A stretch of DNA of 64,000 nucleotides from an uncultured Bacteroidota bacterium (GCA_902762805.1 CACWPQ010000006.1:64695-128694), one strand, 5' to 3'. Counted from the stretch's first letter, positions 12,822 through 62,500 are shown. Made by a program: numbers and translations. The notes: generated by a model not told the origin, from the sequence alone.

Positions 12822-13604
12822 ATGAGAACAATCCTGACAATGATGGCCGTGTGCCTGCTGATGGCCGTCGGCAACCCCGACGCGGCTGCACAGCGCAAGA
12901 AAAAAACCGCCAAGACCGGCCCCGAGAGCCGCACCTACGCCCTCGCCGGCAACTACACGCGCCTCGAGGTCAAGTCGGCGCTCGACGTCGTGGTCTGCGA
13001 CACCGTCAAGGCCGTCACCGTCACCCTCCCGGCCCGCGTGCACGACGACATGGTGGTCGAAATCGAAAACGACGAACTCACCATCCGCCTCCGCGGCCAG
13101 CACCGCCTCAAAGAGCGTCCGCAGGTCCTCCTCCCCCACAATCCGCGCCTGACGCGGGTGGAACTCTCGGGCTCCGCCTCGTTCACCACCCCCAAAGGGC
13201 TCAGCGGCGACAACGTCAAAGTCGACGCCGGCGGCGCCTCGCGTTTCGAGGGCAACCTCACGGGCAAGAAAATCGACATCGAGCTCAGCGGCGCCTCCTG
13301 GTTCCACGGCCACATCGAAGCCGGCATCGTCGAATACGACTCCAAAGGCGCCTCCTCCGCCCTGATGACCGGCAGCGCCTTCATGACCCTCGACGTCGAC
13401 CTCAGCGGCGCCAGCACCATGGACGCCAAAAACTTCACCGCCAAGAAGGTGCGCGGCGAGATGAGCGGCGCCAGCAACCTCGTGGTCCAATGCACGGAAA
13501 GCCTGCGCGTGAACCTCAGCGGCGCCAGCACACTCACCTACATCGGATCGCCACGCGACATAAACTGCCAGACCGACGCCCTCTCAAACGTAGTGAAAAA
13601 ATAA
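12822..13604 (+). CDS. DUF2807 / GIN-domain (putative auto-transporter adhesin head) protein
   Basis: ATG at 12822 gives the signal MRTILTMMAVCLLMAVGNPDAAAQ. Repeated LSGAS.. beta-strand motifs (ELSGSASF, ELSGASWF, DLSGASTM, EMSGASNL, NLSGASTL). Confidence 0.75.
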   Translation: MRTILTMMAVCLLMAVGNPDAAAQRKKKTAKTGPESRTYALAGNYTRLEVKSALDVVVCDTVKAVTVTLPARVHDDMVVEIENDELTIRLRGQHRLKERPQVLLPHNPRLTRVELSGSASFTTPKGLSGDNVKVDAGGASRFEGNLTGKKIDIELSGASWFHGHIEAGIVEYDSKGASSALMTGSAFMTLDVDLSGASTMDAKNFTAKKVRGEMSGASNLVVQCTESLRVNLSGASTLTYIGSPRDINCQTDALSNVVKK

Positions 13605-13605
13605 A

Positions 13606-13696
13606 AAGTATCCACCATTACCCATCGATGGGTAATAATGGGAAAAGACCCTACTATTACCCTAGAGAACCCCTACCATTCCCCTAGAAAACCCCG
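13606..13696 (-). repeat. REP/MITE-like element, full copy (inverted orientation)
   Basis: gtatccaccattacccatcgatgggtaataatgggaaaagaccctactattaccctagagaacccctaccattcccctagaaaacccc, between convergent genes. Confidence 0.65.
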
Positions 13697-13702
13697 GGGC
13701 GG

Positions 13703-14608
13703 TTATTCCGATAGCCGCCCCTCTTTGTCGCCATGCCGGCGCGCCTTGGCCAGCACCACCAGGGTCACCGCAGCCAGAATGAGCGCAATGCCCGCCGCCA
13801 ACCGCAGCGAAAAGGGCTCGCTGAACACGAAGACACCTATCAGCACCGCCGTCAGCGGCTCCAAGGCGCCAAGGATAGCCGTCGGGGTGGAGCCGATATA
13901 CTTGGCGGCATATACCATCATCACCAGCGCCATGATGGCCGGCACCACCGCCAGCCACGACACCCACACCCACGCCGTCGGCGTGGGCGGCAGCATCAGC
14001 CCCTGCCCGCTCAGCAGCGCATAGAACACCATACCGAGGGCACACCAGGCCAAAACATAGAAATTCACCTTGAAACCCGACATCGGCAGCGGGCTTTTGT
14101 CCACCACAATTATATACAGCGCATAGGTCAGCGCCGACACCAGCACCAGCGCCACGCCGGTGAGGCTCAAGGCACCGCCGCTGTCGCCCCAGTAGAGCAG
14201 CACCACACCCACCAGCGAAAGCAGGATGGACAGCACGGTGCCGCCCGTGATGCGCTCGCGGAAGAAGATGGCCATGATGGCCGCCGTCATCACGGGGTAG
14301 GTGAACAATATGGTCGACGCCACGCCGGCCGGCATATGGTGGAACGAAAGGTAGAGCGTCAGCGACGAGACAATGAAAAGCAGCCCCAGGGCGCTGAGGG
14401 TGAGAAACTCGCGCTTGGTCACCCGCAAACCCTCCTTGCGGAAGGCCATCACCACGGCAATGATAATCCACGCCAGACCGAAACGATAGAAGAGAACCGA
14501 GGGCGTATTCATGCCCTCGGCGTAGAGGTTGAGCGCCCCGAGGGGGTTAGTGCCGTAGCACACCGCCGCCCCCACGGCGCAGAGTATACCTATCAGCTTG
14601 CGGTTCAA
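13703..14608 (-). CDS. EamA/DMT-family transporter
   Basis: Ten predicted TM helices and two EamA-like halves. TTG at 14608 ((M)NRKLIGILCAVGAAV) is preferred because the track ATG at 14713 would overlap ftsZ by 100 nt. The start is uncertain. Confidence 0.7.
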   Translation of the reverse strand: MNRKLIGILCAVGAAVCYGTNPLGALNLYAEGMNTPSVLFYRFGLAWIIIAVVMAFRKEGLRVTKREFLTLSALGLLFIVSSLTLYLSFHHMPAGVASTILFTYPVMTAAIMAIFFRERITGGTVLSILLSLVGVVLLYWGDSGGALSLTGVALVLVSALTYALYIIVVDKSPLPMSGFKVNFYVLAWCALGMVFYALLSGQGLMLPPTPTAWVWVSWLAVVPAIMALVMMVYAAKYIGSTPTAILGALEPLTAVLIGVFVFSEPFSLRLAAGIALILAAVTLVVLAKARRHGDKEGRLSE

Positions 14609-17849: not shown

Positions 17850-18605
17850 TTATTTCTTTGTACAAACTACTTGGCCTTTGAATTTAAGGCTGATACGCGA
17901 ATAGGTGTCCCAGCCGGCGCGCGGCATGCCCTTGCGGTAGAAAGCAAGGAGGTTGGAGAACTTGTCGTCGAGGTCATAGGCATCGCCCAACTCGATGACG
18001 TGGTCTCCCACCTTGGGAACCATCATGATGTCGCCGTCGCGCTCGATGTATATCTGGTCGATGAGCTGAGCATAACGGTGTTCGGCGTCGAGGTAGGAGG
18101 CGAGCTGCCAGAGGGCGGTGAGCTGGGAGTCGAGGCTGTCGCTGCGCAGGGGCTCCACAAAGTCACCACCGGCCACGAGCACGTTGCAGTTGCCCAAGCG
18201 GGAGAGGGGGAAGATGGCCCCTTCGCGGTCGAGGTAGCGCTCGCGGTCGCCATGGAAGAGGCGAGCGATGGGGCGGCGCTGGTCGGCACGCACCACCACG
18301 CGGCCGCTGACGCTGACGACGGACTGCACATTGGTGAGGAAGGGCACACGTCGTGCGGCCTCGGCCACCGCGTCGCAGTCGACCGACTTGACCTGCTGCT
18401 GCAAGAGCGTGGGGAGGGCGGCGAGGACGGAGTCTTCGACGGTCTGGTCGGCCACCAGGGCTGGGGTGGAGCCGCGGCGGATGTCGACCTCGATGCCACG
18501 CACCTGCGAGCGCGAGCGCACGACGTTGGCCACCACCACCAGCACGGCCAGCAGCAGGGCGCCGAGGAGGATGAGGAGTATCTTGGCGGAGCGTTTCATT
18601 TTCAT
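17850..18605 (-). CDS. ftsQ: Cell division protein FtsQ
   Basis: Single N-terminal TM helix (AKILLILLGALLLAVLVVVANVV) followed by a POTRA-like region. Position in the dcw cluster supports the call. Confidence 0.85.
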   Translation of the reverse strand: MKMKRSAKILLILLGALLLAVLVVVANVVRSRSQVRGIEVDIRRGSTPALVADQTVEDSVLAALPTLLQQQVKSVDCDAVAEAARRVPFLTNVQSVVSVSGRVVVRADQRRPIARLFHGDRERYLDREGAIFPLSRLGNCNVLVAGGDFVEPLRSDSLDSQLTALWQLASYLDAEHRYAQLIDQIYIERDGDIMMVPKVGDHVIELGDAYDLDDKFSNLLAFYRKGMPRAGWDTYSRISLKFKGQVVCTKK

Positions 18606-20050
18606 AGCATGGTCTCCTTCAGAACGGTTTCGAGACGGGGCACGAGGCGGTCGATGTCGCCGGCGCCGAGGGTGAGCACTACATCGGGGCAGAGGGCTGG
18701 GACGAGCTCGAGGGCCTGGTCGGGGGTGCAGAGGTACTTGGACATGGTGTCCATCTTGCGGAGCACCATGGAGGAGGTGACGCCGAGGATGGGTTTTTCG
18801 CGGGCGGGATAGATGGGGAGCATGATGACCTCGTCGAGGGTCTGGAGGACGCGGGCGAAGTCGTCGGCCAGGTCGCGGGTGCGGCTGTAGAGGTGGGGCT
18901 GGAAGATGCCGACGAGGCGCTTGCCGGGGTAGAGGTAGCGGACAGACTCGATGGTGGACTGCAGTTCCTGCGGATGGTGGGCATAGTCGTCGATGTAGAC
19001 GAGGTCCTTCTCGCGGATGCGGTAGTCGAAGCGTCGCTGGACGCCCTGGAAGGTCTTCAGCCCGTGGCGGAGCTGGTACTGGTCGAGGCCGCAGGCGAGG
19101 GCGATGGCGGCGGCGGCGACGGCGTTTTCGACGTTGAAGAGGGCGGTGCCCTGCAGCTCGAGGTCGTAGAGCACGCCGTCGGGGGTGCGGAGGTCGAAGA
19201 AGAGGTTGCCGCTATAGGTGCGTACGTTGATGGCGTAGTAGTCGGCTTCGACGCCGCGGGCGGTGTAGGTGGTCAGTGGCCAGTGGTCAGTGGTCAGTGG
19301 CCGGTGGTCAGTGGTCAGTGGCTGGTGGTCGTGGTCGTGGTGGTGGTGGTGGTCGTGGTGGTGGTGCCCGTGGGGGAGGAGGGATTCGCCGTCGGCGGTG
19401 ATAAAGGTGCCGTCCTTGATGAGGAGGCGTCCGGAGGGGTCGACCTGGGAGGCGAACTGGAGATAGGCTTCGAGCATGTGGCGGTGGTCGCCGTAGATGT
19501 CGAGGTGGTCAGGGTCGGTGGCGGTGACGACGGCCATGTGGGGATGGAGCTGGAGGAAGGAGCGGTCGTATTCATCGGCCTCGACAACGATGAGGTCGCT
19601 CTGGGGGTCGACGTGGAGGTTGGACTGGAAGTTCTTGCTTATGCCGCCGAGAAAGGCGTTGCACCCGCAGGAGGCCTTGCTGAGCAGGTGGGCGATCATG
19701 GCGGATGTGGAGGTCTTGCCGTGGGAGCCGGCGACGGCGATGCAACGTTTGCCGCGGGTAAGCTCGCCGAGCACCTGGGAGCGCTTCTCCATTTTCACGC
19801 CGCGAGCCAGCAGGGCTTGGAACTCAAGGGTATCGGTGGGGACGGCGGGGGTGTAGACGACGAGGTCGATATCGGCGGGCAGGCGGTCGGGGTTGTCGTC
19901 GAAATGGATGTCGATGCCTTCGGCCTGCAGCCGGTCGGTCAGGGGCGAGGGTGTGCGGTCGTAGCCGCAGACGGTGTCGCCACGCTGATGGAAGAAGCGC
20001 GCGAGGGCGCTCATGCCGATGCCTCCTATGCCAAGGAAGTAGTAGTTCAT
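18602..20050 (-). CDS. murC: UDP-N-acetylmuramate--L-alanine ligase, with ~37-aa repeat-encoded His-rich insertion
   Basis: MNYYFLGIGGIGMSALARFF and VAGSHGKTSTSAMIAHLL (the Mur ligase P-loop). Insertion HGHHHHDHHHHHDHDHQPLTTDHRPLTTDHWPLTT. Confidence 0.95.
   Translation of the reverse strand: MNYYFLGIGGIGMSALARFFHQRGDTVCGYDRTPSPLTDRLQAEGIDIHFDDNPDRLPADIDLVVYTPAVPTDTLEFQALLARGVKMEKRSQVLGELTRGKRCIAVAGSHGKTSTSAMIAHLLSKASCGCNAFLGGISKNFQSNLHVDPQSDLIVVEADEYDRSFLQLHPHMAVVTATDPDHLDIYGDHRHMLEAYLQFASQVDPSGRLLIKDGTFITADGESLLPHGHHHHDHHHHHDHDHQPLTTDHRPLTTDHWPLTTYTARGVEADYYAINVRTYSGNLFFDLRTPDGVLYDLELQGTALFNVENAVAAAAIALACGLDQYQLRHGLKTFQGVQRRFDYRIREKDLVYIDDYAHHPQELQSTIESVRYLYPGKRLVGIFQPHLYSRTRDLADDFARVLQTLDEVIMLPIYPAREKPILGVTSSMVLRKMDTMSKYLCTPDQALELVPALCPDVVLTLGAGDIDRLVPRLETVLKETML
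19265..19366 (-). repeat. Heptanucleotide repeat (CACTGAC)x9 followed by (CAC/GAC)n trinucleotide tract inside murC
   Basis: Coding strand: caccagc cactgac cactgac caccggc cactgac cactgac cactggc cactgac cacctac. This tract is preceded by cac/gac codons encoding HGHHHHDHHHHHDHDH. Confidence 0.9.
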
Positions 20051-21153
20051 TTTGCAATCTTTTCTATTTGGTCAACGATTTTGTCGGCGGCGCCGCGGAC
20101 AGCCAAGGTCTGTATGGCCTGGCGCATGGCCTGCATGCGTGGCTGGTCCTTGAGGAGTTCGTCCGCCAGGGGGAGCGCTTTGGCGCTGCATTCGGCGTCG
20201 GGCACCATGAGTGCGGCGCCTTTGTCGACCAGCGCGAGGGCGTTTTTGGTCTGATGGTCTTCGGCGACGTTGGGCGAGGGGATGAGGACGACGGGCTTGC
20301 CGACGAGGCAGAGCTCGCTGATGGCGATGGCACCGGCGCGGGAGACGACGAGGTCGGCGGCGGCGTAGGCGAGGTCCATGCGCTGGATGAACTGGTGGAC
20401 TTTGACGGGGCAGGTGTCGGGGTGGCGGCGGATGGCGGCCTGGGCCTCGTCGAAGCCCCAGCGGCCGGTCTGCCAGATGTACTGCACCTGGGCGGAGGCG
20501 AGCGAGGGGAGTGCGGCGAGCATCATCTGGTTGATGCTGCGAGCGCCGAGGCTGCCGCCGACGACGAGGACGGTGGGCATGGAGGGGGAGAGGGCGAAGT
20601 GGGCGAGGCCCTCCTCGCGCGTGCAGGTCATCTGCTCGATATCGGCGCGGACGGGGTTGCCGGTGAAGACGATTTTGTCGGCGGGGAAGAAGCGCTGCAT
20701 GCCGTCGTAGGCGACGCAGATGGTGCGAGCGCTGCGGGAGAGGAGCTTGTTGGTGAGGCCGGCGTAGGAGTTTTGCTCTTGGAGGAGGGTGGGATAGCCG
20801 AGCGAGGCGGCGGCTTTGAGGGTGGGTTCGGAGGCGAAGCCGCCGACGCCGACGACGACGTCGGGGCGGAAGTCGGCGAGGATGCGTTTGACTTTGGCGC
20901 GGCTGCGGATCATCTTCAGGGGGAGCTGGAGGTTCTTCCAGATGTTGGCGGGGGTGAGCTTGCGCTGCAGGCCGGCGATGGGGAGGCCCTCAATGGGATA
21001 GCCTGCGGCCGGCACCTTCTCCATCTCCATCTTGCCTTCGGCGCCGACGAAGAGGATGTCGGCGTCGGCATGGCGAGCCCGGATGGCGTTGGCGATTGCG
21101 ATGGCGGGGAAGATGTGTCCGCCGCTGCCTCCTCCGCTGATGATGACTTTCAT
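20047..21153 (-). CDS. murG: Undecaprenyldiphospho-muramoylpentapeptide beta-N-acetylglucosaminyltransferase
   Basis: MKVIISGGGSGGHIFPAIAIANA, the GT28 N- and C-terminal patterns, and dcw position. Confidence 0.95.
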   Translation of the reverse strand: MKVIISGGGSGGHIFPAIAIANAIRARHADADILFVGAEGKMEMEKVPAAGYPIEGLPIAGLQRKLTPANIWKNLQLPLKMIRSRAKVKRILADFRPDVVVGVGGFASEPTLKAAASLGYPTLLQEQNSYAGLTNKLLSRSARTICVAYDGMQRFFPADKIVFTGNPVRADIEQMTCTREEGLAHFALSPSMPTVLVVGGSLGARSINQMMLAALPSLASAQVQYIWQTGRWGFDEAQAAIRRHPDTCPVKVHQFIQRMDLAYAAADLVVSRAGAIAISELCLVGKPVVLIPSPNVAEDHQTKNALALVDKGAALMVPDAECSAKALPLADELLKDQPRMQAMRQAIQTLAVRGAADKIVDQIEKIAK

Positions 21154-21299: not shown

Positions 21300-22505
21300 T
21301 CATTCTTCGGGTGGTTTTTGGGGTTCGACTTGTGGTTCGGGGGAGGGTGCGGGAAGGGGTTCTGTTTCGGAGTTGGTGTCGGCGGCGATGGACTGGATGA
21401 TGCCGAAGCCGCAGCCGAGGAAGAGGTAGGCGGTGCCGCCGTAGGAGATGAAGGGGAGGGTCTGTCCGGTGACGGGGAGGACGCCGACGGCGACGGACAT
21501 GTTGACCAGCGCCTGTATGTATATCATAGTGCCCAGACCGGCCACGGTCAGTGCGCCGAAGCGTCCGCGGCAGCGTCGTGCCAGTCGCACACAGCGGAAG
21601 TAGAAGAAGCTGTAGAGCAGGAATACGCCGACTCCCCCCACGAGGCCGAACTCCTCGAGGATGATGGCGTAGATGAAGTCGTTGTGGGCCTGGGTCATGA
21701 GGCGAGCGTGGATGGTGTTGCCCGGGCCTTTGCCGAGGAGGCCGCCGCGTGCGATGGCCATGCGTGCCATGTTCTCTTGGGTGAGTTCGTCGGGGTTGGG
21801 GTTGATCCAGGAGTGGACACGGTGGCCCCATGTCTCGGCGCGCTCGAGCACCTGGGCTGTCTGGGGCTGGTTGTCGGCGTAGAGGGAGCGGTCGTAGCGG
21901 TAGTAGGTGATGGCCAATCCTGCCACGACGGCGACGAGGCCGACCAGGAAGAGGCGCCACCACCAGCGGCGGTTGACGCCGCCGAAGAGCATCATCAGGA
22001 AGCAGGAGAGGAAGATGAGTGCGGCGGTGGAGAAGTTCTGCGGGAGCACCAGCACTACGACGACACCGATGTAGATGAGCAATTGGAGGAAGGTGCCGAG
22101 GTCGCCCATTTGGTCCTTTTTGAAGGTCATCATGCGTGCGATGAAGAGGACCAGGAACAGCTTGGCCACCTCGGAGGGTTGGAACTGTCCGATGCCTGGC
22201 ACGCGGAACCAGCGGCTGCCCAGGGCGAGCATCACAATGAGAATCACCGCCGAGGCCCAATAGCCCAGCAGGGCGAAGCGGGAGAAGTAGCGGTAGTCGA
22301 CGCGCGAAAGGAAAACCGCCGCCACCCAGGTGGCAGCCACGATGGCCATGTGGCGCAGGAAGAGCGACGAGGGGGTCTTGCTGGCATACTCGGTGTAGGC
22401 ATAGAGTCCGATGGAGCTGTAGACCTCGACCAGCGAGACGATGGTCAGCAGCAGAAAGAGGACCCAAAGGGTACGGTCGCCACGGAATATGTTGGTCAGT
22501 TTCAT
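21300..22505 (-). CDS. ftsW: SEDS-family peptidoglycan glycosyltransferase FtsW
   Basis: Multi-TM protein with FtsW/RodA/SpoVE motifs (HNDFIYAIILEEFG, PVTGQTLPFISYGGT) in the dcw position. Confidence 0.93.
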   Translation of the reverse strand: MKLTNIFRGDRTLWVLFLLLTIVSLVEVYSSIGLYAYTEYASKTPSSLFLRHMAIVAATWVAAVFLSRVDYRYFSRFALLGYWASAVILIVMLALGSRWFRVPGIGQFQPSEVAKLFLVLFIARMMTFKKDQMGDLGTFLQLLIYIGVVVVLVLPQNFSTAALIFLSCFLMMLFGGVNRRWWWRLFLVGLVAVVAGLAITYYRYDRSLYADNQPQTAQVLERAETWGHRVHSWINPNPDELTQENMARMAIARGGLLGKGPGNTIHARLMTQAHNDFIYAIILEEFGLVGGVGVFLLYSFFYFRCVRLARRCRGRFGALTVAGLGTMIYIQALVNMSVAVGVLPVTGQTLPFISYGGTAYLFLGCGFGIIQSIAADTNSETEPLPAPSPEPQVEPQKPPEE

Positions 22506-22508
22506 AGG

Positions 22509-23048
22509 TTATAACTCATTGACTTCGCGACAGAAGCTGGCGGCGCGGTCGGAGGCGGACTGCTCGGAGGGGCAGGCTGGGGAGTAGAGGACGCGCACGT
22601 CGTCGGCCTCGTAGCGGTAGGCGTGGTGGAGCGCCTCGTGCATGGTGTCGCAGGGGATGATGTTGGGCACGACGCCGTCGAAAGCCTGATGCATGCAGGG
22701 GCTGTCGCCGCCCACGATAAGCAGCATGCGAACCTTGCGCAGGGCGGTGGGCACGAGGCGGCTGTAGTCGACCTCGTCCTTGGGTGCATCGGCAATCCAG
22801 ATGATGCCGCCCTGGGTGCTTTCGAGGGCGTACCAGGTGGCGTTGACCGAACGGGAGGCGGCGTCGCAGATGTATTCGCGGCCGAGGATGCGTGCCACGA
22901 ACTCGAGGCGGTGGCGCGTGTCCTCGAGGCGGCTGAAGCATGCGCGGAGGGAGGCGTTGCGGATCACCTTGAGGCGGTGGGCGTCGATGCCGGAGAGGCC
23001 GGTGTGTATTCTTTCGCGGCCTTGGGTGGCCAGGGTTTCGATTGTCAT
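22509..23048 (-). CDS. MurD C-terminal-domain-only homolog (179 aa), occupying the murD slot; possibly a remnant
   Basis: HRLEFVARILGREYICDAASRSVNATWYALEST...LLIVGGDS...VRVLYSPACPSEQSASDRAASFCREV aligns to domain 3 of MurD (HR.E.V...NDSKATN...LLSPACAS.D.F). The N-terminal Rossmann domain and central GTNGKT ATPase domain are absent, and no other frame encodes them. Confidence 0.75.
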   Translation of the reverse strand: MTIETLATQGRERIHTGLSGIDAHRLKVIRNASLRACFSRLEDTRHRLEFVARILGREYICDAASRSVNATWYALESTQGGIIWIADAPKDEVDYSRLVPTALRKVRMLLIVGGDSPCMHQAFDGVVPNIIPCDTMHEALHHAYRYEADDVRVLYSPACPSEQSASDRAASFCREVNEL

Positions 23049-23087
23049 GTTGATGGGTTGATATGTTGACAGGTTGATATGGGGTGG
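23049..23087 (-). repeat. Octanucleotide tandem repeat (ATATCAAC-like x4) forming the entire mraY-murD' spacer
   Basis: Coding strand: ccacccc atatcaac ctgtcaac atatcaac ccatcaac ATG. Confidence 0.8.
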
Positions 23088-24266
23088 CTAACGGAGTTTG
23101 AGTGTGGAGAGGGTGAAGATGGCCAGGAGGATGGCGATGATGATGAAGCGCATGACGACCTTCTCCTCGGCCACGCCCTTCTTCTGGTAGTGGTGGTGGA
23201 GGGGTGTCATGCGGAAGGGGCGCTTCTCCACCGGCACCACCTGGTCTGGCGGCAGGTTGTGGCGGCGTCGGTAGGCCTTGCAGAAGGAGGTCTGGATGAT
23301 GACCGAGAGGTTCTCCACCACATAGATGCCACACAGCACCGGCAGGAGGAGTTCCTTCTTGATGAGCACGGCGAAGACGGCGATGATGCTGCCGATGGCC
23401 AGCGAGCCGGTGTCGCCCATGAAAATCTCGGCCGGATGGGAGTTGAACCAGAGGAAGCCGAGGGTGGCGCCGACGAAGGCGGTGCTGAAGATGGCCAGCT
23501 CGCCGATGTTGGGGAGGTAGACGGTGTTGAGGTAGGAGGCCATGACGACGTTGCCCGACACCCACGCCAGCAGGGCCAGGGCGCCCCCGTTGACGGCGGC
23601 CACGCCGGTGGCGATGCCGTCGATGCCGTCGGTGAGGTTCGAGGCGTTGCTCACGGCGGTGACAATCAGGATGATGACCAGCACGTAGACCACCCATACG
23701 AGCTCCTGCGCCCAGGGGCCCATCCAGGTGACGAGCCAGGCATAGTCGAACTCGTTGTTCTTGACGAAGGGGATGGTGGTGGTGGTGGTGCCGCTGAAGC
23801 CTGGGTGGTGGATGATGAGCAGGCCGACCACGAGGCCGAGGAGCACCTGGGCCAGCACCTTGTACTTGCCGGGCAGGCCGGCCTTGCCGCGGGTTTTCTT
23901 CAGGTAGTCGTCGAGGAAACCGACGAGGCCCATCCAGACGGTGGTGCCGAGCATGACCTGGACATAGACATTGTCCAGCTTGGCGAAGAGGAGCGTGGGG
24001 ACGATGATGGCGAAGAGGATGAGGAGGCCGCCCATGGTGGGGGTCTGCGACTTGAGGGCGGCGCCCTCGAGGCCGAGCTCGGTGCGCACCTCGTCCATCA
24101 TGCCCAGCCGGTTCTTCATGAAGCGTATGAACGGCTTGCCGAGCAGCAGCATGATGAGCAGCGAGGTGACCATGCTGGCCGCCGCACGGAACGAGATGTA
24201 TTGGAACACACCCGCCCCGGGGAAGTCGAACGCCTTGTCTAGCCAGTCGAAGAGATAATATAACAT
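23088..24266 (-). CDS. mraY: Phospho-N-acetylmuramoyl-pentapeptide-transferase
   Basis: MLYYLFDWLDKAFDFPGAGVFQYISFRAA, NLTDGIDGIA, HHHYQ motifs. Confidence 0.96.
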   Translation of the reverse strand: MLYYLFDWLDKAFDFPGAGVFQYISFRAAASMVTSLLIMLLLGKPFIRFMKNRLGMMDEVRTELGLEGAALKSQTPTMGGLLILFAIIVPTLLFAKLDNVYVQVMLGTTVWMGLVGFLDDYLKKTRGKAGLPGKYKVLAQVLLGLVVGLLIIHHPGFSGTTTTTIPFVKNNEFDYAWLVTWMGPWAQELVWVVYVLVIILIVTAVSNASNLTDGIDGIATGVAAVNGGALALLAWVSGNVVMASYLNTVYLPNIGELAIFSTAFVGATLGFLWFNSHPAEIFMGDTGSLAIGSIIAVFAVLIKKELLLPVLCGIYVVENLSVIIQTSFCKAYRRRHNLPPDQVVPVEKRPFRMTPLHHHYQKKGVAEEKVVMRFIIIAILLAIFTLSTLKLR

Positions 24267-24294
24267 AATTCCTAATTTCTAATTCCTAATTGAC
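24267..24294 (-). repeat. Heptanucleotide repeat (AATTAGG/AATTAGA x4) spanning the murE stop and the mraY start
   Basis: Coding strand: tc aattagg aattaga aattagg aattATG. The murE TAG stop and the mraY ATG both sit inside repeat units. Confidence 0.8.
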
Positions 24295-25720
24295 TTTCGA
24301 GTTCTTCCACATCGTCGAAGTGCGAGCGGACGCCGTTGACCTCCTGGTACTTCTCGTGCCCCTTGCCGGCCACGAGGACGATGTCGCCCTCGCGGGCCAT
24401 GAGGCAGGCGGTGCGGATGGCCTGTCGGCGGTCGGTGATGCGGACGGTGTGGCTGAGCTGCTCGGCGGAGAGGCCGGCTTCCATGTCGTCGAGGATGGCG
24501 TCGGGCTGCTCGGTGCGGGGGTTGTCGCTGGTGAGCACCAGCTTGTCGCTCAGGCGCATGGCAATCTGCGCCATCTCGGGGCGCTTGGTGCGGTCGCGGT
24601 CGCCGCCGCAGCCGACGACGGTGATGATTTGCTGCTGCGCGCGGCGCAGGTCGCGGATGGTGTCGAGCACGTTCTGGAGGGCGTCGGGCGTGTGGGCATA
24701 GTCGACGATGGCGGTCACGCCGCGACCGCTGACGTACTGGAAGCGGCCCGGGGCGGGCTCGAGGAGCGACAGCTGCCGCAGCACCTCCTCCTTGGGCACC
24801 CCGCAAAGCAGGGCGGCGGAGTAGATGGCCAGCAGGTTGTAGGCGTTGAAACGGCCCACGAGGCGGCACCAGAGTTCGCTGCCGTCGAGGTCGAGCAGCA
24901 TGCCCTCGAAGCCTTCCTCGACAATGCGGCAACGATGGTCGGCCATCTGGCGCAGGGAGTAGGTGTGGACGGCGGCGCGTGTGTTCTGCACCATGACGCG
25001 GCCGTTCTTGTCGTCGATGTTGACCAGCGCCCATGCCGTGGCCGGCAGGGCGTCGAAGAAGCCCTTCTTGGCGGCGATGTAGGCCTGCATGGTGCGGTGG
25101 AAGTCGAGGTGGTCGTGGGTGATGTTGCTGAAGATGGCGCCGGCGAATTCGAGCCCCGCGATGCGGCGCTGCACGACGGCGTGGCTGCTGACCTCCATGA
25201 AGCAGCAGTCGCATCCGGCCTCCACCATGCGGGCGAGGAGCTGGTTGAGTTCCAGGGCGTCGGGGGTGGTGTGTCCGGTGGGGAGCTCTTGGTCGTCGAT
25301 TTTGTTGACGATGGTGGAGATGAGGCCGGCGTGGCGGCCCAAATGGCGGAAGAGGCGGTGCAGCAGGGTGACGGTGGTGGTCTTGCCGTTGGTGCCAGTG
25401 ATGCCGACCAGCTGCAGGCGTCGCGAGGGGTGGCCGTAGAAGTTGGCGGCGGCGAGGCCGAGGGCTTCGCTGCTGTCGGGCACCACGACATAGGTACACG
25501 TCGGCGCGTCGGCAGGCACATGCTGGCAGACGACGGCCACGGCGCCGGCCTGGACGGCGGCGGCGATATAGTCGTGCCCGTCTACCTTGGTGCCCGGCTG
25601 GGCCACGAAGAGGGTTCCCTCCCCCACCCTGCGCGAGTCGAACTGGAGGTCCTTCACCTCCACGTCGACCGGGCCTTGCAGCTGCGCGTCTATGCCTTGT
25701 ATGATTTGTTTCAGTTTCAT
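24272..25720 (-). CDS. murE: UDP-N-acetylmuramoyl-L-alanyl-D-glutamate--2,6-diaminopimelate ligase
   Basis: VGITGTNGKTTTVTLL P-loop and the DNPR motif (LTSDNPRTE) typical of meso-DAP-adding MurE. Confidence 0.95.
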   Translation of the reverse strand: MKLKQIIQGIDAQLQGPVDVEVKDLQFDSRRVGEGTLFVAQPGTKVDGHDYIAAAVQAGAVAVVCQHVPADAPTCTYVVVPDSSEALGLAAANFYGHPSRRLQLVGITGTNGKTTTVTLLHRLFRHLGRHAGLISTIVNKIDDQELPTGHTTPDALELNQLLARMVEAGCDCCFMEVSSHAVVQRRIAGLEFAGAIFSNITHDHLDFHRTMQAYIAAKKGFFDALPATAWALVNIDDKNGRVMVQNTRAAVHTYSLRQMADHRCRIVEEGFEGMLLDLDGSELWCRLVGRFNAYNLLAIYSAALLCGVPKEEVLRQLSLLEPAPGRFQYVSGRGVTAIVDYAHTPDALQNVLDTIRDLRRAQQQIITVVGCGGDRDRTKRPEMAQIAMRLSDKLVLTSDNPRTEQPDAILDDMEAGLSAEQLSHTVRITDRRQAIRTACLMAREGDIVLVAGKGHEKYQEVNGVRSHFDDVEELESQLGIRN

Positions 25721-25727
25721 TGCGTTT

Positions 25728-27935
25728 TTATTTCATGGTGAGCACCACGGTGGAGCCCTGGGCGGCTTTGCCCTTGAGGGATTGGGAGAAGACCTTGCCG
25801 TAGCCGCGCACACGGGCGCGGTAGCCCATGGAATGGAGCAGCTCGACGGCGTCCTTGGCGGTCATGCCGTAGCAGTTGGGCACCTGCCCTTCGGTGGGAG
25901 CATAGGGGATATAGGTGGCGGCGGTGCTGTCGGTGGCCTGCCGGTAGCTGACCCAGCGGCTGTCGGGGTCGGCAGTCTGGTAGGGCAGGCGGAGCAGCTT
26001 GTAGATGTCGGGCAGGTTGGTCTGGTCGCCCTTGGCCAGGGTGGGGCGTTGCTGGGCCTTGGCGCTGTCTTCCTGAAGGGTGGGCCAGACGGACTTCACG
26101 CCGCCGTCGCTCAGTCGCTTGTCGACAGCCACCACACAGTCGGAGATATCCTTGAAGACCAACGCCGCCTGGCGGCCATAGTAGGGGATGTCCTTGACCA
26201 CCACAAGGCAAGTGTAGCGCGGGTTCTCCGAGGGGAAGAAGCCGGCGAAGGAGGCGTTGTAGCGCTTGAGGTTGGCGTAGCTGTGGACGGCGGTGCCTGT
26301 CTTGCCGGCGATGCCATAGGTGTTGTTCTTGATGTTGTTGCCGGTGCCGTTCTCGCTGCAGATGCTGGGGTTGAGCACCACGGGCTTCACCTCGCGCTGG
26401 CGCCCGCGCTCGTCGACATAGGCGCGGCAGAAGAGCGGCTTCACCATGCGGCCGCCGGCGCCGAGGGCGTTGTAGAAGGTGATCAGGCGCATGGCCGAGA
26501 CATCGGTCGAATAGCCGTAGCAGAAATTGAGGAAGTCGCGCTTCGAGGCCCAGAGGTTGTTGATGTGGAGGTCGTATTCGCGTGCCTTGACATCGAGGTT
26601 GAGCTTCTCGTAGGGGAACATGCCCTCGACCAGCTGGCGCAGCGTGTCGCGCCGGTCGCTGTAGAGCTGCCAGCCGAGGTCGCACATACCGACGTTGGAC
26701 GACTGCTCGATGACGCGCTTGAGGCTCAGCGAGTCCCAGTCGCCATGGTCGTCCTTGATTTCGCCGTATTTGCCGCCGAAGTTCTTGTAGCGGGCGGGCA
26801 GACGCATGGTGGTGTCGATGGTGGTGTTGGGGTCCTCAAGCATAGCCGAGAGGATGACGGTCTTGAAGGTGGAGCCTGGCTCGTAGATGTCGCTGACGGC
26901 CACATTGCGGTCGCGCACCTCGCGGTAGTCGTGCACCGAAGTGTCGACAGCCAGGTTGGCGCAGGCCAGCACGTAGCCGGTCTCCATCTCCATCAGAATG
27001 GCGCAGCCGGCCGAGCCGCCGTACTGGCGCAGGGCTTTGCGGAGCGAGCTCTCGGCGATGTCCTGATAGCGGGTGTCGATGGTGGAGACGATGTCGCGGC
27101 CATCCACCTTGTTCTGCACCACCACGGTGTCTATCCTGTCGCCATCGGTGCGTTGGGGGATTTCCATGCGTTGGCGCGGCTCGTCGGGCAACCAGATGCC
27201 CTTGGTGAGGCGGCGGCAATTGAAGATGCCGTCCTGGCCGCGGAGGATGCTGTCGTAGTAGCCTTCGAGTCCGGTGTAGGTGTCGGTCGCACGGCTATTG
27301 CGGAAGCCGATGGTGTTGGCGGCCATGTTGCCGTAAATGTGGGCGCGCACCTGGCGGACGACGCTCTGCCCGTCGACCTGCTTCACCACGCCGCGCTTCC
27401 AGCCCGGCAGGCGGCTGATGTCGAGCCATACGGAGTAGGGCACATTGCGCTCGATGAGCGCACAGCGGCGCGACTTCTCACGCTGACGCCCTTTCAGCAG
27501 GCGGTCGCGGTAGTAGGCGGCGTTGTGCTGCGGCATGGCCTGGGCAAGCATGAGGCTGACGGTGTCGATATACTTGTGGAAGTTGGAGTCCACGATGGGG
27601 CCGGTCTCCTTGAGGATGCCCTTCTTGTCGTAGGTGGGATTGCCGTGGTCGTCGAGCACGGGGGCGTTGTAGAGGTCGAGGTAGAGGTCGCATTCGGTGA
27701 CGGTGGTGGCCAGGATCTTGCCGTCGCTGGAATAGATGTTGCCACGGCGGGCGGGGTCGGTGCGGAGGCCGGCCTCGCGCTTGCTGGCGCGGGCACGCCA
27801 CTCGTCGCCGTCCACAAACTGTATTTTGATGATGCTCCACACGATGGCGATACCCACTCCCAAAGTGAGGAGCAGGTAGAGCAGCGCCATTCCGCGTGTC
27901 ATCTGTGTGTCGTTGTCTTTCTTTTCTGTGCTCAT
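25728..27935 (-). CDS. ftsI: Penicillin-binding protein (class B transpeptidase, FtsI/PBP3)
   Basis: N-terminal TM helix, PBP dimerisation domain, STFK active-site motif (EPGSTFKTV), KTGTA motif, and a C-terminal PASTA-like segment. Confidence 0.93.
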   Translation of the reverse strand: MSTEKKDNDTQMTRGMALLYLLLTLGVGIAIVWSIIKIQFVDGDEWRARASKREAGLRTDPARRGNIYSSDGKILATTVTECDLYLDLYNAPVLDDHGNPTYDKKGILKETGPIVDSNFHKYIDTVSLMLAQAMPQHNAAYYRDRLLKGRQREKSRRCALIERNVPYSVWLDISRLPGWKRGVVKQVDGQSVVRQVRAHIYGNMAANTIGFRNSRATDTYTGLEGYYDSILRGQDGIFNCRRLTKGIWLPDEPRQRMEIPQRTDGDRIDTVVVQNKVDGRDIVSTIDTRYQDIAESSLRKALRQYGGSAGCAILMEMETGYVLACANLAVDTSVHDYREVRDRNVAVSDIYEPGSTFKTVILSAMLEDPNTTIDTTMRLPARYKNFGGKYGEIKDDHGDWDSLSLKRVIEQSSNVGMCDLGWQLYSDRRDTLRQLVEGMFPYEKLNLDVKAREYDLHINNLWASKRDFLNFCYGYSTDVSAMRLITFYNALGAGGRMVKPLFCRAYVDERGRQREVKPVVLNPSICSENGTGNNIKNNTYGIAGKTGTAVHSYANLKRYNASFAGFFPSENPRYTCLVVVKDIPYYGRQAALVFKDISDCVVAVDKRLSDGGVKSVWPTLQEDSAKAQQRPTLAKGDQTNLPDIYKLLRLPYQTADPDSRWVSYRQATDSTAATYIPYAPTEGQVPNCYGMTAKDAVELLHSMGYRARVRGYGKVFSQSLKGKAAQGSTVVLTMK

Positions 27936-27941: not shown

Positions 27942-28385
27942 TTATTTCTCTATCTCGTAGGGGGGGCCGGAGGTGATGCCGACTCCCGATTGGCTGAGGT
28001 CTTCGGCTATTTGGGATATCTTGACACTCTTCTGGTACTGTTTCTGCATCTGGATGCGATGCTCGCGGAGGTCGTTGATGCGTTCCTGCACTGCAATCTT
28101 CTCGCGACTGAGGCTCTCGACGCGGTAGCGGTTGCCTACAATCAGCAAGAGGAATATCAGGCAGAGGATGAGCAGGGGTATCTGCCGCAGCACCAACTTG
28201 TCAGCCAGCAGGTCGCCACCGAGCACCTTGCCCACCCCGCGGGCCACCTTGCCCCCCCTGGAGGAACGGGACTCGGCCTGCGGCGCGTCGGACACGGAAG
28301 CCGTCGATGCTTCGACCACATCGGGCTCCTGCACCTCGGGGGCGAGACCTTCCTCGACTACCTTTTCTCTAAACTTGTTTCCCAT
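27942..28385 (-). CDS. ftsL: Cell division protein FtsL-like
   Basis: Single TM helix (IPLLILCLIFLLLIVG) followed by a coiled coil. Lies between rsmH and ftsI. Confidence 0.75.
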   Translation of the reverse strand: MGNKFREKVVEEGLAPEVQEPDVVEASTASVSDAPQAESRSSRGGKVARGVGKVLGGDLLADKLVLRQIPLLILCLIFLLLIVGNRYRVESLSREKIAVQERINDLREHRIQMQKQYQKSVKISQIAEDLSQSGVGITSGPPYEIEK

Positions 28386-28459
28386 ATCAGTCTTCTAATC
28401 TAATCCCAGTTTATAATATCATCTATACAATATATAATATGTATTACAGTCTGTGTTGT

Positions 28460-29377
28460 TTATTGTTGACTTCTCAGTGCTCCCACACGGAGCCGTGCGC
28501 TGCGCGAGCGGGGGTTCCGAGCCACCTCTTCGTCACTGGCCTGCAGGGCTTTGCGCACCACAGGCTGCATGGGCGAAAGCAGGTTGCCGTAGAAATCCTT
28601 CTCCTCGCGACCCTCGAAGTTGCCCGTGCGGAGGAAGTTCTTCACCAGGCGGTCCTCGAGCGAGTGGTAGCTGATGACCACCAGCCGCCCGTCGGGCGCG
28701 AGGAGCTGCTGCGCCTGGAGGAGCATTTCTTTCAGGGCCTCCAGCTCGCCGTTGACCTCGATGCGGAGGGCTTGGAAGAGCATGGCCAGGTACTTGTTCT
28801 CCATGCCGCGCGGCAGGTGGTGGACCACGGCTTGCTTCAGCTCGGCGGTGGTGGTGATTTCGTGCTCTGCACGTGCTTTGACAATGGCGCGGGCCATCTG
28901 TCGTGCGTTGGGCAGCTCGCCGTAGAGCTTGAGCAGGCGGGCCAGGTCGTCCTCGGAGAGGGTGCACACGAGGGTGGCGGCGGTGGTGGCGGTGCGGCGG
29001 TCCATGCGGAGGTCGAGGTCGCCGTCGAAGCGGGTGGAGAAGCCACGCTCGGCGACATCGAACTGGTGGCTGCTGACGCCGAGGTCGGCCAGCAGGCCGT
29101 CGACCTGGCGCACGCCGTGGAGGCGGAGGAAATTGCGCAGGTGGCGGAAGTTCTCATTGATGAGGGTGAAGCGGGGGTCGGGGATGGCATTGCGGAGGGC
29201 GTCCTCGTCCTGGTCGAAGGCGTAGAGGCGCCCGTCGGGCCCGAGGCGGTCGAGGATGGCGCGCGAGTGGCCGCCGCCGCCGAAGGTGACGTCGACATAG
29301 GTGCCCCCGGGCCTGATGTTCAGTCCTTCGAGGGCTTCGGCGAGCATGACGGGTATGTGGTAGCTATTCTCCTGCAT
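28460..29377 (-). CDS. rsmH: 16S rRNA (cytosine1402-N4)-methyltransferase
   Basis: ATG at 29377 gives MQENSYHIPVMLAEALEGL...DVTFGGGGHS...DLGVSSHQ. The track start at 29422 is a 15-codon upstream extension. Confidence 0.93.
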   Translation of the reverse strand: MQENSYHIPVMLAEALEGLNIRPGGTYVDVTFGGGGHSRAILDRLGPDGRLYAFDQDEDALRNAIPDPRFTLINENFRHLRNFLRLHGVRQVDGLLADLGVSSHQFDVAERGFSTRFDGDLDLRMDRRTATTAATLVCTLSEDDLARLLKLYGELPNARQMARAIVKARAEHEITTTAELKQAVVHHLPRGMENKYLAMLFQALRIEVNGELEALKEMLLQAQQLLAPDGRLVVISYHSLEDRLVKNFLRTGNFEGREEKDFYGNLLSPMQPVVRKALQASDEEVARNPRSRSARLRVGALRSQQ

Positions 29378-29828
29378 CGTCGCTCCGGCTTGTGCCAAGC
29401 AGCGCTTCGGCCCGTTGGGCAAAGTCGCCGCCGGCGGTGTTCATACGGTCGTAGGCAGCGCGGTCCCAGAGCTCGATGAACTTGCCGGTCGATTGCAGTA
29501 CAACCTCTTTGGCCTTGGCGATGACGTGCTTCTGCTCGGCGGGGACGAGGAGGCGGTCGTTCGAGTCGAGCTCGATGATGTTGCCTTCGGTCAGCTTGCG
29601 CAGCAGTTCGCGGTCTTCGCGTCGGTAGGGGTTGAGCATGGCTTGGAGTTTCTCCACTTCCTCCCTGAAACTGGCATAGGTCCACAGCTCTAGGCACTCG
29701 GCATAGACGCTCTGCCGGATCACAAAACGGCCATCCTCGGTTTCCAACTGCCGCTTGAGGGCAATTGGGAACTTGAAACGACCGTTAGAATCGATCTTAC
29801 AGTACTCTTTACCAAGTATTAACGCCAT
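29364..29828 (-). CDS. mraZ: Transcriptional regulator MraZ
   Basis: 154 aa. KIDSNGRFKFPIALKRQL and ELDSNDRLLVPAEQK are the two MraZ/SpoVT-AbrB repeats. Confidence 0.93.
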   Translation of the reverse strand: MALILGKEYCKIDSNGRFKFPIALKRQLETEDGRFVIRQSVYAECLELWTYASFREEVEKLQAMLNPYRREDRELLRKLTEGNIIELDSNDRLLVPAEQKHVIAKAKEVVLQSTGKFIELWDRAAYDRMNTAGGDFAQRAEALLGTSRSDDAGE

Positions 29829-30225: not shown

Positions 30226-30233
30226 TATCTTTG
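30226..30233 (+). promoter_or_regulatory. -7 promoter box TATCTTTG for the adhesin gene
   Basis: aaaaaaaagttgTATCTTTGCAcc lies 30 nt upstream of the ATG at 30264. Confidence 0.5.
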
Positions 30234-30263
30234 CACCTTGAAAAGATAAAGAAATTGCCCATC

Positions 30264-33200
30264 ATGACATCTGGAAGGACATATTCCATCTTATTGACAA
30301 TCACACTACTATGCAGCATTACAGCCAACGCGCAGAATTATATGGGGACCGACTTTTGGGTGGGCCATATCGTGAATGGGGGCGACCAACGCCCCCACAG
30401 CATCAAGATCACGGCCACGGGCGACACGGCCTGCCAGGTAACCGTCAGCCATCCCGCCACGGGGTGGACACAGACGTCGGCCCTGACGGCCGGCGGGCAG
30501 GTGACGTTCACGCTAACCGAGTCAGCCCTGCCCGAGCACTACTCGATGGTGGAGGCCAAGGGCTACCATGTCACATCCACAGCTGGGATTCAAGTGTCGA
30601 CGCTGTCCAGCGTGCTAGCATCATCCGACGCCACGGCCCTCATCCCGACGCGTATTTTGGGCACCCGCTATATTGTGCTTGACTATCCGGCCGACCCGAA
30701 CCTCGCCGCCCTCGGCGAGACGGGCGGAACGGTGACCATCGTGGCTACGGAGGACAACACCACGGTGTCCTACACCCCGCCCTGCGCACTCCACACCCTG
30801 CCCGGCGACCCGCCGGCGCCTGCGGCGGGCACGCCCACGACCCACACCCTCGCTTCGGCCGGCCAGACGGTCACCCTGCTGGCCAACAGTGCCAACAGCA
30901 GCCTCAGCGGGATGGAGATCACGGCGGACAAGCCCATTGCCGTGTTCCAGGGCAACCAGATTACTTACGTGCCGCATGGCAGTTCGAGCGCCGACATGAT
31001 GTATCACCAGTCGGTGCCGGTGGAGCTGTGGGGGACGGCCTACGGGCTGGTGACCACGGCTGGGCGCAGCGTGGGCGACCGCGTGAGGGTGGTGGCCGAC
31101 AGTGCCTGCACCGTCAGCCTCAGCGATGGGACCACTTTCAATCTGGCGGCACACGGGGTGCATGAGTTCGACTTGCCTGCCAACAGCACCCGCATGTTGA
31201 CGGCTACCAGCCCCGTCAGCGTGGGATTCTGCAGCAAGTCGTCCACCTATAGGGGCGAGGCGGGCGACGCCTCGCTGCTGATGGTGCCGCCCACCGACTA
31301 CGGCATCAGCCACGGACGTTTTGTCACCTACACGACGGAGCGCATCCACACATGGTATGTGGTTGTCGTGACCGACCAGCCGGCCGGCATGACCCACAAC
31401 GGCAACAACATATCCTCGCGCTTCCAACCCATCGGGACCACGGGCTACAGTTACGCCCGCTTCACGGTAACCTCCGGCACCCACCGGCTGGACCACGGCA
31501 ACGGCACGTTCAACGCCTGGACCTACGGGGTGGGCAATGTGCAGAGCTACTTATACAGCATCGGGCAGAGCTACCCACTGCCTGTGCCCGACCCCTGCGC
31601 CATGGGCAACGGGCAGGGCACCGACTTCTGGGCCACTTTCCTCTGCAACGACGACGACCCGGCCAATGCCGAACTCTCGCTCGTTGCCACCGGGCAGCGT
31701 GCGGCCGACATCACCGTCACCAATCCCGTCACGGGGCACACCCAGACCGCCCACCTCAACGCCGGCGGCATGGTGAAGATGACGCTGCCCACCGCCACCT
31801 CCATGCCCTCGGCGCAGCCGGACAACAAGGGCTACCACATCACCTCCACGGCCCCCATCACACTCTACGGCAACAACTATCTCCCGGGCAGCTGGGACTT
31901 CACGCAGGTGCTGCCCACACTGGCGCTGAGCCACCAGTACCTCGTGCAGAACTATCCCAACAACAGCAACCACCCAGCCAACATCGCCATCGTGGCCACG
32001 GAGGACAACACGCAGCTCACCATGGTGCTGCCCTGCACCGTGACGGGACTTAGCCTCCCCATAGGGGCCACCTATACCGTCACCCTCAATTCGGGCCAGA
32101 CCCTTCTGCTGCGCGCCAACAACGGGCAGCACTTCTCGGGCATGGAGGTCAGCTCGAACTGCAAGCCCTTCGCCCTCTTCCAAGGCTGCGGGGCGGGGCG
32201 CGTGGGCGACAACGGCAATTCCTCCGGCCGCGACCACTTCATGGAGCAGGCTGTGCCGCTGGAGATGTGGGGCACGGAGTTTGTGGCCACCGCCACGAAA
32301 GACCGCAGCGAGGGCGACCGCGTGCTGGTCACGGCCGGAGACGACAACTGCGCCGTCGCCGTCAACGGCACCACGGTGGCCACCTTGACGCGCGGACAGA
32401 GCTACGAGCACACCCTGGCCGCCAACAGCACGGCCCGCATCACCACCACGCAGCCCGCCTACGCCTGCCTCTACATGGCCAGTTACCGCAACGGCGGCAC
32501 CAACGGCGACCCCGGCGCTGCCACCCTGCCGCCCGTGGACCGGTGGGTGCAGCGCAGCAATTTCATGCTCGTGCAGTGCAACAACGACCCCAATAGCCAG
32601 TACTATATCGCCAATCCCTACATCAACATCATCGCCGAGAACTCAGCCGTGGGCACGCTGGCGCTCGACGGCACGGTGATTCCGGCCGCACAGTTCGCGC
32701 CCATCGCCGGCACTCCCTACAGCCACGCCCGCATGCACATCGCCTACGGCGCCCACCGCCTGGACGCCGGCGGCAGCGGCACCTTCGCGGCCCGCGCCTA
32801 CGGACTGGGCAGATGGGTGGGGTTCACCTATAACATCGATATGGATTTGGACTGCGCCGAGCGGTGCATTCCCGCGACCCAGCGCGACACAGTCCACCTC
32901 TACGACACCACCTGTCTGGGCATGCTCTACGAGGGCCACGGCTTCCGCTTCGACGCCTCGCGGTGCAGCCCGGGGACGTTCCACCTGTGGGACTCGACGG
33001 TGGTGGCCGACACGGTGCACATGCGTGTGCTGCACCTGCTGGTGCTGCCGACGGCGGAGACGCGCCTGCGGCACACCATCGTGGCAGGCGACACGTTGCG
33101 CTTCGGCGACACACTGATCACGCTGGCCGGCGAATACCGCTTCACCTACACGGCCGCCAACGGGTGCGACTCGGTGGTGGTGCTGGAGGTGGGCTACGAG

Positions 33201-61822: not shown

Positions 61823-62500
61823 ATGAGGCTTGACATTTTGACCTTGTTTCCCAACATGATGCAGATGTTCTTCGAGGAGAGCATCATCAAGCGGGCGCAG
61901 AAGAAGGAGCTCGTGGAGGTACACTTCCACAACCTGCACGACTACTCACTCAACCGCTATGGCTCGGTCGACGACTACCCCTACGGCGGCGTGGCGGGCA
62001 TGGTGATGTGCGTGGAGCCCATCGCCAACTGCATCGAAGGCCTCCTGCGCGAACGCCCCTACGACGACATCATCTACACCGCCCCCGACGGCGAGATGTT
62101 CTCGCAACCGATGGCCAACCAGTTGTCGCTCAAGCAGAACCTGATGATCCTCTGCGGCCACTACAAGGGTGTGGACGAGCGCATACGCGAACATTTCATC
62201 ACGCGCGAAATCTCCATCGGCGACTACGTGCTCACCGGTGGCGAGCTGGCGGCAGCCGTCATTGCCGACACCGTCATCCGCCTCGTCCCAGGCGTCATTG
62301 GCGACGAGCAATCGGCGCTGGCCGACTCGTTCCAAGACAGCCTCGTGGCACCGCCCGAATACACGCGCCCGCCGGAGTTCCGCGGCTGGCGCGTGCCCGA
62401 CGTGCTCCTCAGCGGCAACCACGCCAAGATAGAGCAGTGGCGCATGGAGCAGGCCATCGCCCGCACCAAAGAACGCCGCCCTGAATTGCTTAAGCATTAA
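61823..62500 (+). CDS. trmD: tRNA (guanine37-N1)-methyltransferase
   Basis: [13 protein letters not shown]...[14 protein letters not shown]...[13 protein letters not shown]...[12 protein letters not shown]. Confidence 0.94.

Follow-up and report, generated by a model that had tools for sequence, protein, structure and literature searches.

The murD position of the division and cell wall (dcw) gene cluster was examined in a 64,000-nucleotide stretch of DNA from an uncultured Bacteroidota bacterium (GCA_902762805.1 CACWPQ010000006.1:64695-128694; the whole stretch is referred to as the window). Between mraY and ftsW the cluster contains a short gene of 179 codons plus a stop codon (22509-22511), which starts with ATG and lies at 22509..23048 on the minus strand. 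At the level of sequence this could be shown to be a real, expressed-looking gene inside the dcw operon, encoding a stand-alone C-terminal domain (domain 3) of MurD. A first-pass annotation of the window had described a 179-residue open reading frame (ORF) in the murD slot of an otherwise complete and canonically ordered dcw cluster, and the ORF, Pfam and NCBIfam calls agree with this description. The gene order is mraZ-rsmH-ftsL-ftsI-murE-mraY-[short]-ftsW-murG-murC-ftsQ-ftsA-ftsZ, which is of the Bacteroidota type. The other genes are full length, and MurE, MraY, MurG and MurC all score over their curated NCBIfam equivalog cut-offs. The GC content at third codon positions of the short gene is 0.87, matching that of the genuine genes of the 62%-GC window.

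The relationship of the 179-residue protein to MurD, also proposed in the first-pass annotation, was confirmed by profile, sequence and structure comparisons. Residues 31-161 matched positions 291-421 of the 441-position murD model TIGR01087 with an E-value of 2e-17, and the score of 63.4 bits is below the curated equivalog cut-off of 211.95 bits. No Pfam match was obtained at E<=0.01, placing the protein below the gathering threshold of PF02875 (Mur_ligase_C), a family to which a minority of its close relatives (the window clade, described below) have a precomputed match. Its sequence relatives in the PDB are the C-terminal thirds of MurD only. An AlphaFold model built from 50 family members gave a mean predicted local distance difference test (pLDDT) value of 81, with values >90 across most of residues 50-179; residues 1-18 and 39-43 were disordered and pLDDT remained <70 as far as residue 50. 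Superposition of the model on MurD domain 3 using Foldseek gave a root-mean-square deviation (rmsd) of 2.1-2.7 Å over ~141 residues with a probability of 1.00, and the top 33 PDB matches were MurD without exception. By its predicted fold the short protein is a member of the Mur_ligase_C superfamily.

Residues 46-179 (22512..22913, minus strand) correspond to MurD domain 3, a Rossmann-like fold in which the ligand contacts are altered. Residues 1-45 (22914..23048, minus strand) align with residues 267-311 of the MurD structure 3lk7 and are what remains of MurD domain 2, namely its final beta-strand and helix, together with the inter-domain helix. The first residue is equivalent to about MurD residue 267, and the UDP-binding N-terminal Rossmann-like domain (Pfam MurD-like_N / MurD_N) is absent. 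The central ATP-binding domain with its GxxGK[TS] P-loop (Pfam Mur_ligase_M) is likewise absent from the ORF, the remainder of domain 2 being the last strand and helix only, with a degenerate GxHNxxN motif.

The ligand contacts of domain 3 were located using the E. coli MurD numbering, which we take to be R302, D317, K319, T321, K348, S415, L416 and F422. When the short protein was aligned to canonical MurD, the equivalents of R302 and D317 were retained as R47 and D62, while K319 was replaced by A64, T321 by R66, which is invariant in the clade, and K348 by D91, which is sited in a clade-variable loop. The equivalent of S415 is a serine in the window protein and an asparagine in the clade consensus, and the S415-F422 loop varies and has three residues fewer. 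The histidine and asparagines of GxHNxxN, the ATP-adenine motif, are lost and variable. The canonical NDSKATNVN reads C61-DAASRSV-N69 in the window protein and SPACAS..F reads SPACPSEQSA; the alignment agrees here with the first-pass annotation, which had listed losses in NDSKATN and SPACASxDxF. Because domains 1 and 2 are absent and K319, T321, K348 and the F422 loop are lost, ligase activity by the short protein alone is, to judge from its sequence, impossible, and canonical D-Glu binding by the window-clade protein would be unlikely. The former active-site face is strongly conserved within the clade, in the motifs Y/H-R-x-E-F, N/C-D-A-A-x-R-x-[IV]-N, W-I-A and S-P-A-C. In the N-terminal segment G17, L18, G20, D22, L26, R30, L34, C37 and F38 are invariant across the clade, and 43 residues are invariant among 50 sequences. 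Judging by residue conservation, the old interface and the N-terminal tail are still constrained by something.

A protein search returned 211 relatives; among the matches listed (120), all were 167-187 residues long, 59-90% identical and from metagenome-assembled genomes (MAGs) of Bacteroidales. Proteins identical to that of the window are recorded in 82 assembly-collection blocks produced with various assemblers, and each locus examined (L001-L014) has the arrangement mraY-[179/180 residues]-ftsW with intact neighbours. When one genome per GTDB species was scanned, 74 species genomes were found to carry the gene, with 43-88% identity and always in the layout mraY-[~179 residues]-ftsW. All but one of the 74 are uncultured Bacteroidales or Bacteroidetes MAGs, mostly from ruminant gut compartments (cattle-rumen RUG, sheep, goat, deer, yak, buffalo); horse faeces contributed three and other sources a few. 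The remaining one (L071, DBXK01000008.1) is labelled Christensenella sp. UBA1214 yet has a Bacteroidales-type short gene, and this contig is probably mis-binned.

The median identity to the window protein was 61.6%, compared with 64.1% for FtsW and 64.3% for FtsQ. The ratio of nonsynonymous to synonymous substitution rates (dN/dS) was determined by the pairwise Nei-Gojobori method for 83 species pairs, many of which are dS-saturated, and for the short gene the median was 0.073. The corresponding medians were 0.066 for murE, 0.044 for mraY, 0.082 for ftsW, 0.061 for murG, 0.079 for murC, 0.173 for ftsQ and 0.119 for ftsA. The three least saturated pairs (dS 0.14, 0.52 and 0.64) gave dN/dS values for the short gene of 0.017, 0.061 and 0.14. 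Purifying selection on the short gene, as estimated from these ratios, equals that on murE, mraY, ftsW, murG and murC. The earlier suggestion that the ORF is a retained fragment is upheld by a dN/dS of ~0.07, on par with the essential neighbours, and by the length and position kept in 74 species. A collapsed assembly, which had been raised as a concern, is refuted, since the identical protein and layout occur in many independent assemblies and the layout in 74 MAGs.

The start codon of the short gene corresponds to an internal methionine of full-length Bacteroidota MurD (MTIEELALQGKHN). In the full-length proteins P0192, P0224 and P0239 this residue begins the conserved segment M-[TN]-I-[EQ]-E-L-A-L-Q-G-K-H-N-x-Y-N-S-M-A-A-G, which covers, within domain 2, the final strand of the small antiparallel sheet and the GxHNxxN-bearing helix. 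The N-terminus of the short protein reads M-T-I-E-T-L-A-T-Q-G-R-E-R-I-H-T-G-L-S-G, and its segment MTIETLATQGRERIHTGLSG aligns to MTIEELALQGKHNMYNSMAAG of the same three MurDs. Because the start codon is a conserved internal methionine, the simplest history is an in-place deletion of approximately the first 270 codons of murD, from just past mraY to this methionine. Neither the start at the internal methionine nor the independent recurrence of the truncation in other Bacteroidota had been foreseen in the first-pass annotation.

The mraY stop codon and the ATG are separated by a 39-nt A/C-rich, G-poor leader (23049..23087, minus strand) that consists of 7 non-repeat bases followed by 4 imperfect octamers (xxATCAAC). 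Tandem Repeats Finder gave a period of 8 with 3.9 copies and 78% matches; the octamer repeat reported earlier is present, but it is not the pure repeat that had been described. In the 74 species genomes the conserved ATG follows the mraY stop after 1-195 nt (median ~36), and there is therefore no room for the missing 270 codons. These homologous spacers are also A/C-rich and G-poor, and in relatives the repeat units differ (ACACATTC, AACTTAGA, AAGCACAC, TATCAAC) or no repeat is present. No Rfam family matched the spacer region. The octamer repeat had previously been proposed as a possible deletion scar; this origin, and a role as an RNA element, were ruled out by the variable spacers, the repeats before other genes and the absence of an Rfam match. 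By these comparisons the spacer is an ordinary A/C-rich leader of the clade. Tandem repeats of 7-8 nt are also found directly upstream of mraY (24267-24300), ftsL (28386-28420) and a gene at 62541 (62500-62540, plus strand), with three copies of AATTAGGA preceding mraY and four of (C/G)xTATCAxC preceding the gene at 62541. Repeats of 7-8 nt adjoining start codons, in A/C- or A/T-rich, G-poor leaders, were observed in loci L001, L007, L035, L037, L038 and L068 as well, and relatives have other repeat units at the equivalent junctions. The leader repeats may be a translation-initiation feature of a clade without Shine-Dalgarno sequences.

The missing domains were searched for by tblastn, using E. 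coli MurD and the N-terminal parts of six Bacteroidota MurDs as queries. In any frame of the whole 64-kb window only murC and murE were matched and no MurD domains 1-2 were detected, in line with the earlier statement that no other frame encodes them; a Pfam search of 37 window ORFs gave no further Mur ligase. Domains 1-2 were not found within 10 kb on either side of the short gene in the 74 genomes (~1.4 Mb), nor near five low-GC lineage loci described below. The best 120 protein matches to a profile of the N-terminal part were canonical MurDs and contig-edge partials, with no protein made of domains 1-2 only and no contig-length link to the short-gene contigs, and the best 80 loci of a metagenome scan with the same profile all had the ordinary order mraY-murD-ftsW. 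Such profile searches are biased to canonical sequences, and these negatives are not proof of absence. The GC-rich full-length MurDs P0209 and P0239, the nearest to the family profile, were considered as relocated copies and rejected, as both lie in normal dcw clusters of other organisms.

A profile search that covered 1.84 billion representative proteins revealed many proteins of ~178-182 residues that were matched end to end and interleaved among full-length MurDs. Many of the 182-residue 'MurD' database entries are artefacts, either contig-edge calls that begin at the conserved methionine or products of frameshift-ridden long-read assemblies such as L015 (ERZ25039514 contig_2926, 750 kb), in which mraY, murD, murG, murC and all dcw genes are fragmented. 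Low-GC (34-39%) Bacteroidota from environmental sources, however, were found to have intact dcw clusters in which mraY is followed after 23-45 nt by a 182-residue domain-3 gene and then ftsW. The gene is located at 5001-5549 in L016, a 407-kb JGI contig, and at the same coordinates in L017/L018 (P0383/P0419 across L016-L018), and at 6001-6549 in both L178 (NCBI MAG GCA_034722575.1; P0330) and L179 (P0380). At least three low-GC lineages have the truncation, and all start at the same internal methionine. P0383, P0419, P0330 and P0380 retain the motifs NDSKATN, GGxDKGNDY and LLSPACASFDLFxNYExRG, with a degenerate GKHN, and the low-GC proteins do match Pfam Mur_ligase_C. In a rough neighbour-joining tree the low-GC truncated proteins were scattered amid full-length MurDs, and the rumen clade formed a separate long branch. 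From this distribution the truncation to the same methionine seems to have happened several times independently, an argument for the usefulness of domain 3 on its own. The low-GC genes also appear to be undescribed.

MurD-type domain 3 was also observed fused to unrelated N-termini, in P0236 (L097 3727-4962), P0240, P0311, P0204 and P0232. The N-terminal parts of these fusions include an unknown domain with a PDEWSQY motif, TIR with TRADD-like_N, and CarbopepD_reg. P0236 lies outside dcw clusters, its neighbours being an extracytoplasmic function (ECF) sigma factor, UDG and YchF. The P0236 fusion and its 381-residue upstream neighbour were examined as a divergent partner and set aside, as the neighbour has no Pfam or PDB similarity.

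Both MurE and MurC are canonical and under selection, and UDP-MurNAc-L-Ala-D-Glu must therefore be made in these organisms. The reading preferred here, to which we give about an even chance, is that the short gene encodes a retained non-catalytic domain-3 protein of the peptidoglycan-precursor machinery and that a working MurD is encoded elsewhere. The 5' part of murD would have been deleted in place after functional replacement by a second MurD, and the D-Glu ligase activity on which intact MurE depends would come from a complete MurD homolog outside the dcw cluster. A deletion that followed replacement is suggested because no lineage shows the adjacent N-terminal ORF expected from fission, and a non-catalytic role because the ligand-contact residues are lost in the window clade. 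The short protein may serve in docking or regulation, as a subunit in contact with other Mur enzymes, MurG, MraY or the divisome, the candidate contact surfaces being the former active-site face (YR.EF, NDAA.R, SPAC) and the conserved, predicted-unstructured N-terminal tail. Docking is plausible because Mur ligases bind one another and MurG/MreB (PMC10214165, PMC6420597): MurD binds MurE-MurF at ~0.7 μM (PMC10214165), and in T. maritima MurD, MurE and MurF bind MurG and MreB (as cited in PMC6420597).

Several observations weigh against a non-catalytic remnant that is backed by a second enzyme. No second murD was seen, and none was found outside dcw clusters in the N-part profile search or among the best 80 metagenome loci. 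The canonical domain-3 motifs of the low-GC lineages are unexpected for a purely structural remnant and hint that domain 3 still takes part in chemistry, at least in those lineages. In the window clade, the gain of an arginine at T321 (R66) together with the loss of K348 could mean that the carboxylate-binding charge has moved and that binding has not been lost. Taken broadly, the possibility that there is no single-chain MurD in these organisms, the ligase being split and acting in trans with domains 1-2 that are separate or belong to another Mur ligase, or the step being performed by a non-MurD enzyme with the short protein as accessory, is doubtful. Recurrence at the same methionine would, if this were true, identify domain 3 as a module of the cell-wall precursor machinery with an autonomous function. 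In the more specific form of a two-piece MurD, which we regard as unlikely, the short protein would be the C-terminal subunit and domains 1-2 would be a separate polypeptide encoded elsewhere; the N-terminal strand and helix would complete domain 2 and domain 3 would close the active site in trans. Taken alone, the first 45 residues are predicted to be disordered or are modelled at low confidence, yet they are among the most conserved of the clade, as expected if this segment folds onto a partner, and the former active-site face remains conserved. P0383, P0419, P0330 and P0380 retain all canonical domain-3 motifs for D-Glu and ATP contact, and selection on the short gene matches that on the essential Mur genes. 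Against such a partnership, the window clade has lost, or varies at, K319, T321, K348, the F422 loop and the GxHNxxN asparagines, no domains-1-2-only protein was present among the best 120 protein matches or the best 80 metagenome loci, and an adjacent two-ORF stage of fission was seen in no lineage.

A route with no canonical MurD, in which another enzyme adds D-Glu (or L-Glu that is then epimerised), or in which domains 1-2 of MurC work together with domain 3, is considered improbable; the short protein would then be an accessory amino-acid-binding module. This would account for domains 1-2 being unseen in the 64-kb window and in ~1.4 Mb of clade dcw surroundings and for a truncation that recurs in several lineages, and MurC and MurD have one N-terminal domain type, MurC matching the murD model at 4e-25. 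The sequence examined is, however, a small fraction of each genome, it contains no candidate alternative ligase, and this is the least parsimonious reading. A takeover of the MurD step by MurC was rejected, as the MurC of short-gene lineages is not unusually MurD-like (62-79 bits, against 55-70 bits for MurC of a canonical locus). The window MurC passes the curated murC equivalog cut-off. It is very improbable that the ORF is kept only for ribosome termination beside the ftsW start, as translational coupling or operon spacing with a functionless protein. In the window ftsW starts 3 nt downstream of the short-gene stop; the short gene ends a few bases from ftsW in most of the 74 genomes, with an ATGA overlap in 19, and no promoter-like or terminator-like site was found at the junctions with mraY or ftsW or inside the 39-nt spacer. 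Coupling constrains only the frame and the last codons, whereas the dN/dS of 0.07 is gene-wide, 43 residues are invariant among 50 sequences and the domain folds at high confidence in the model. A plain pseudogene remnant, or an artefact of assembly or gene calling, has the least credence of all, even though many 182-residue 'MurD' entries are contig-edge or frameshift artefacts (e.g. L015). A misassembly or collapsed repeat is ruled out by 82 blocks of independent assemblies that contain the identical protein and by 74 MAGs that share the layout, with intact neighbours, a pseudogene by dN/dS and constant length, and the 1-195-nt spacer is too small for the missing codons. Taken together, the strong purifying selection, the constant length and the many independent assemblies exclude misassembly, a plain pseudogene and an ORF kept for its frame only. 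The main rival of the preferred reading is the two-piece MurD.

The neighbouring dcw genes of the window all lie on the minus strand. The upstream neighbour mraY (23088-24266) is in the same operon and scored 284 bits against TIGR00445, for which the cut-off is 192, and the downstream neighbour ftsW (21300-22505) matched Pfam FTSW_RODA_SPOVE at E=5e-62. The remaining genes are mraZ (29364-29828), rsmH (28460-29422), ftsL (27942-28385), ftsI (25728-27935), murE (24272-25720), murG (20047-21153) and murC (18602-20050). Adjoining mraZ and divergent from it is a gene for a 1239-residue protein with IgGFc_binding and CHU_C (type IX secretion) domains (30231-33950, plus strand), which occupies the equivalent position in the relatives L004, L007-L011 and L013. 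A 764-residue ORF at 48376-50670 (minus strand) has the full set of three sigma-54 (RpoN) domains and, at its C-terminus, a Peptidase_M23 domain, a fusion also present in L001-L003 (1-513), a relative with a short-gene identity of ~63%. In L011 (ERZ1024276 scaffold_792, of the window's species) the murC region at 13000-14400 was called as small ORFs on both strands, in contrast to the intact 482-residue MurC of the window and of L012. The break may reflect an error of assembly or a disruption at the strain level.

A family-level clade of abundant rumen bacteria, comprising at least 74 species, keeps only the last MurD domain at the canonical locus, under strong selection, as do several unrelated Bacteroidota lineages. 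The short-gene organisms must then have moved or rearranged the D-Glu step. Selection would act on a function of MurD domain 3 itself, which may lie in docking, regulation or catalysis in trans; this bears on the long-discussed idea of a complex of Mur ligases, MurG and MraY. If a relocated full-length murD exists, the short gene would be a neofunctionalised remnant. Proteins of the clade are labelled in databases as 'hypothetical protein', 'cyanophycin synthetase' or 'UDP-N-acetylmuramoylalanine-D-glutamate ligase'. Such automatic names mislead for this family, and marker-gene completeness estimates may also be affected. MurD is an antibiotic target and a phylogenomic marker.

To our knowledge MurD is regarded as an essential and universally single-chain, three-domain enzyme, and no report of a truncated, split or stand-alone MurD was found in the full-text literature. 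The short protein shares with canonical MurD the mraY-ftsW slot, the domain-3 fold (rmsd ~2.1-2.7 Å), 26-28% sequence identity, the equivalents of R302 and D317 and the SPAC motif. It differs in that domain 1 is missing, as is almost the whole of domain 2 with its P-loop, the catalytic Lys, Glu and His and the carbamylated Lys, and in the absence of equivalents of K319, T321, K348 and F422. The low-GC 182-residue genes have the same layout and internal-methionine start as the window clade and likewise no domains 1-2 nearby, but differ in their canonical domain-3 motifs and their Mur_ligase_C match. Xanthomonas MurD2/MurL is an example of non-standard D-Glu incorporation, in which L-Glu is ligated and then epimerised; MurD2 is a full three-domain ligase, and nothing in this analysis points to a route by way of L-Glu or to MurL. 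Among the Foldseek matches was also MurT (6h5e), from the MurT/GatD lipid II amidotransferase, a remote relative at ~10% identity. It has a Mur-ligase fold, is likewise no classical ligase and acts only with a partner protein, but it retains the central ATP-binding domain, carries a C-terminal domain of its own and lies in another genomic context. The gene architecture of the dcw cluster is known to be plastic, and the Mur fusions MurE-MurF and MurC-Ddl and the complexes of Mur ligases with MurG/MreB indicate that Mur enzymes work as associated modules (PMC10214165, PMC6420597). Those fusions join complete enzymes, whereas in the organisms described here one enzyme is reduced at its canonical locus to a single domain.

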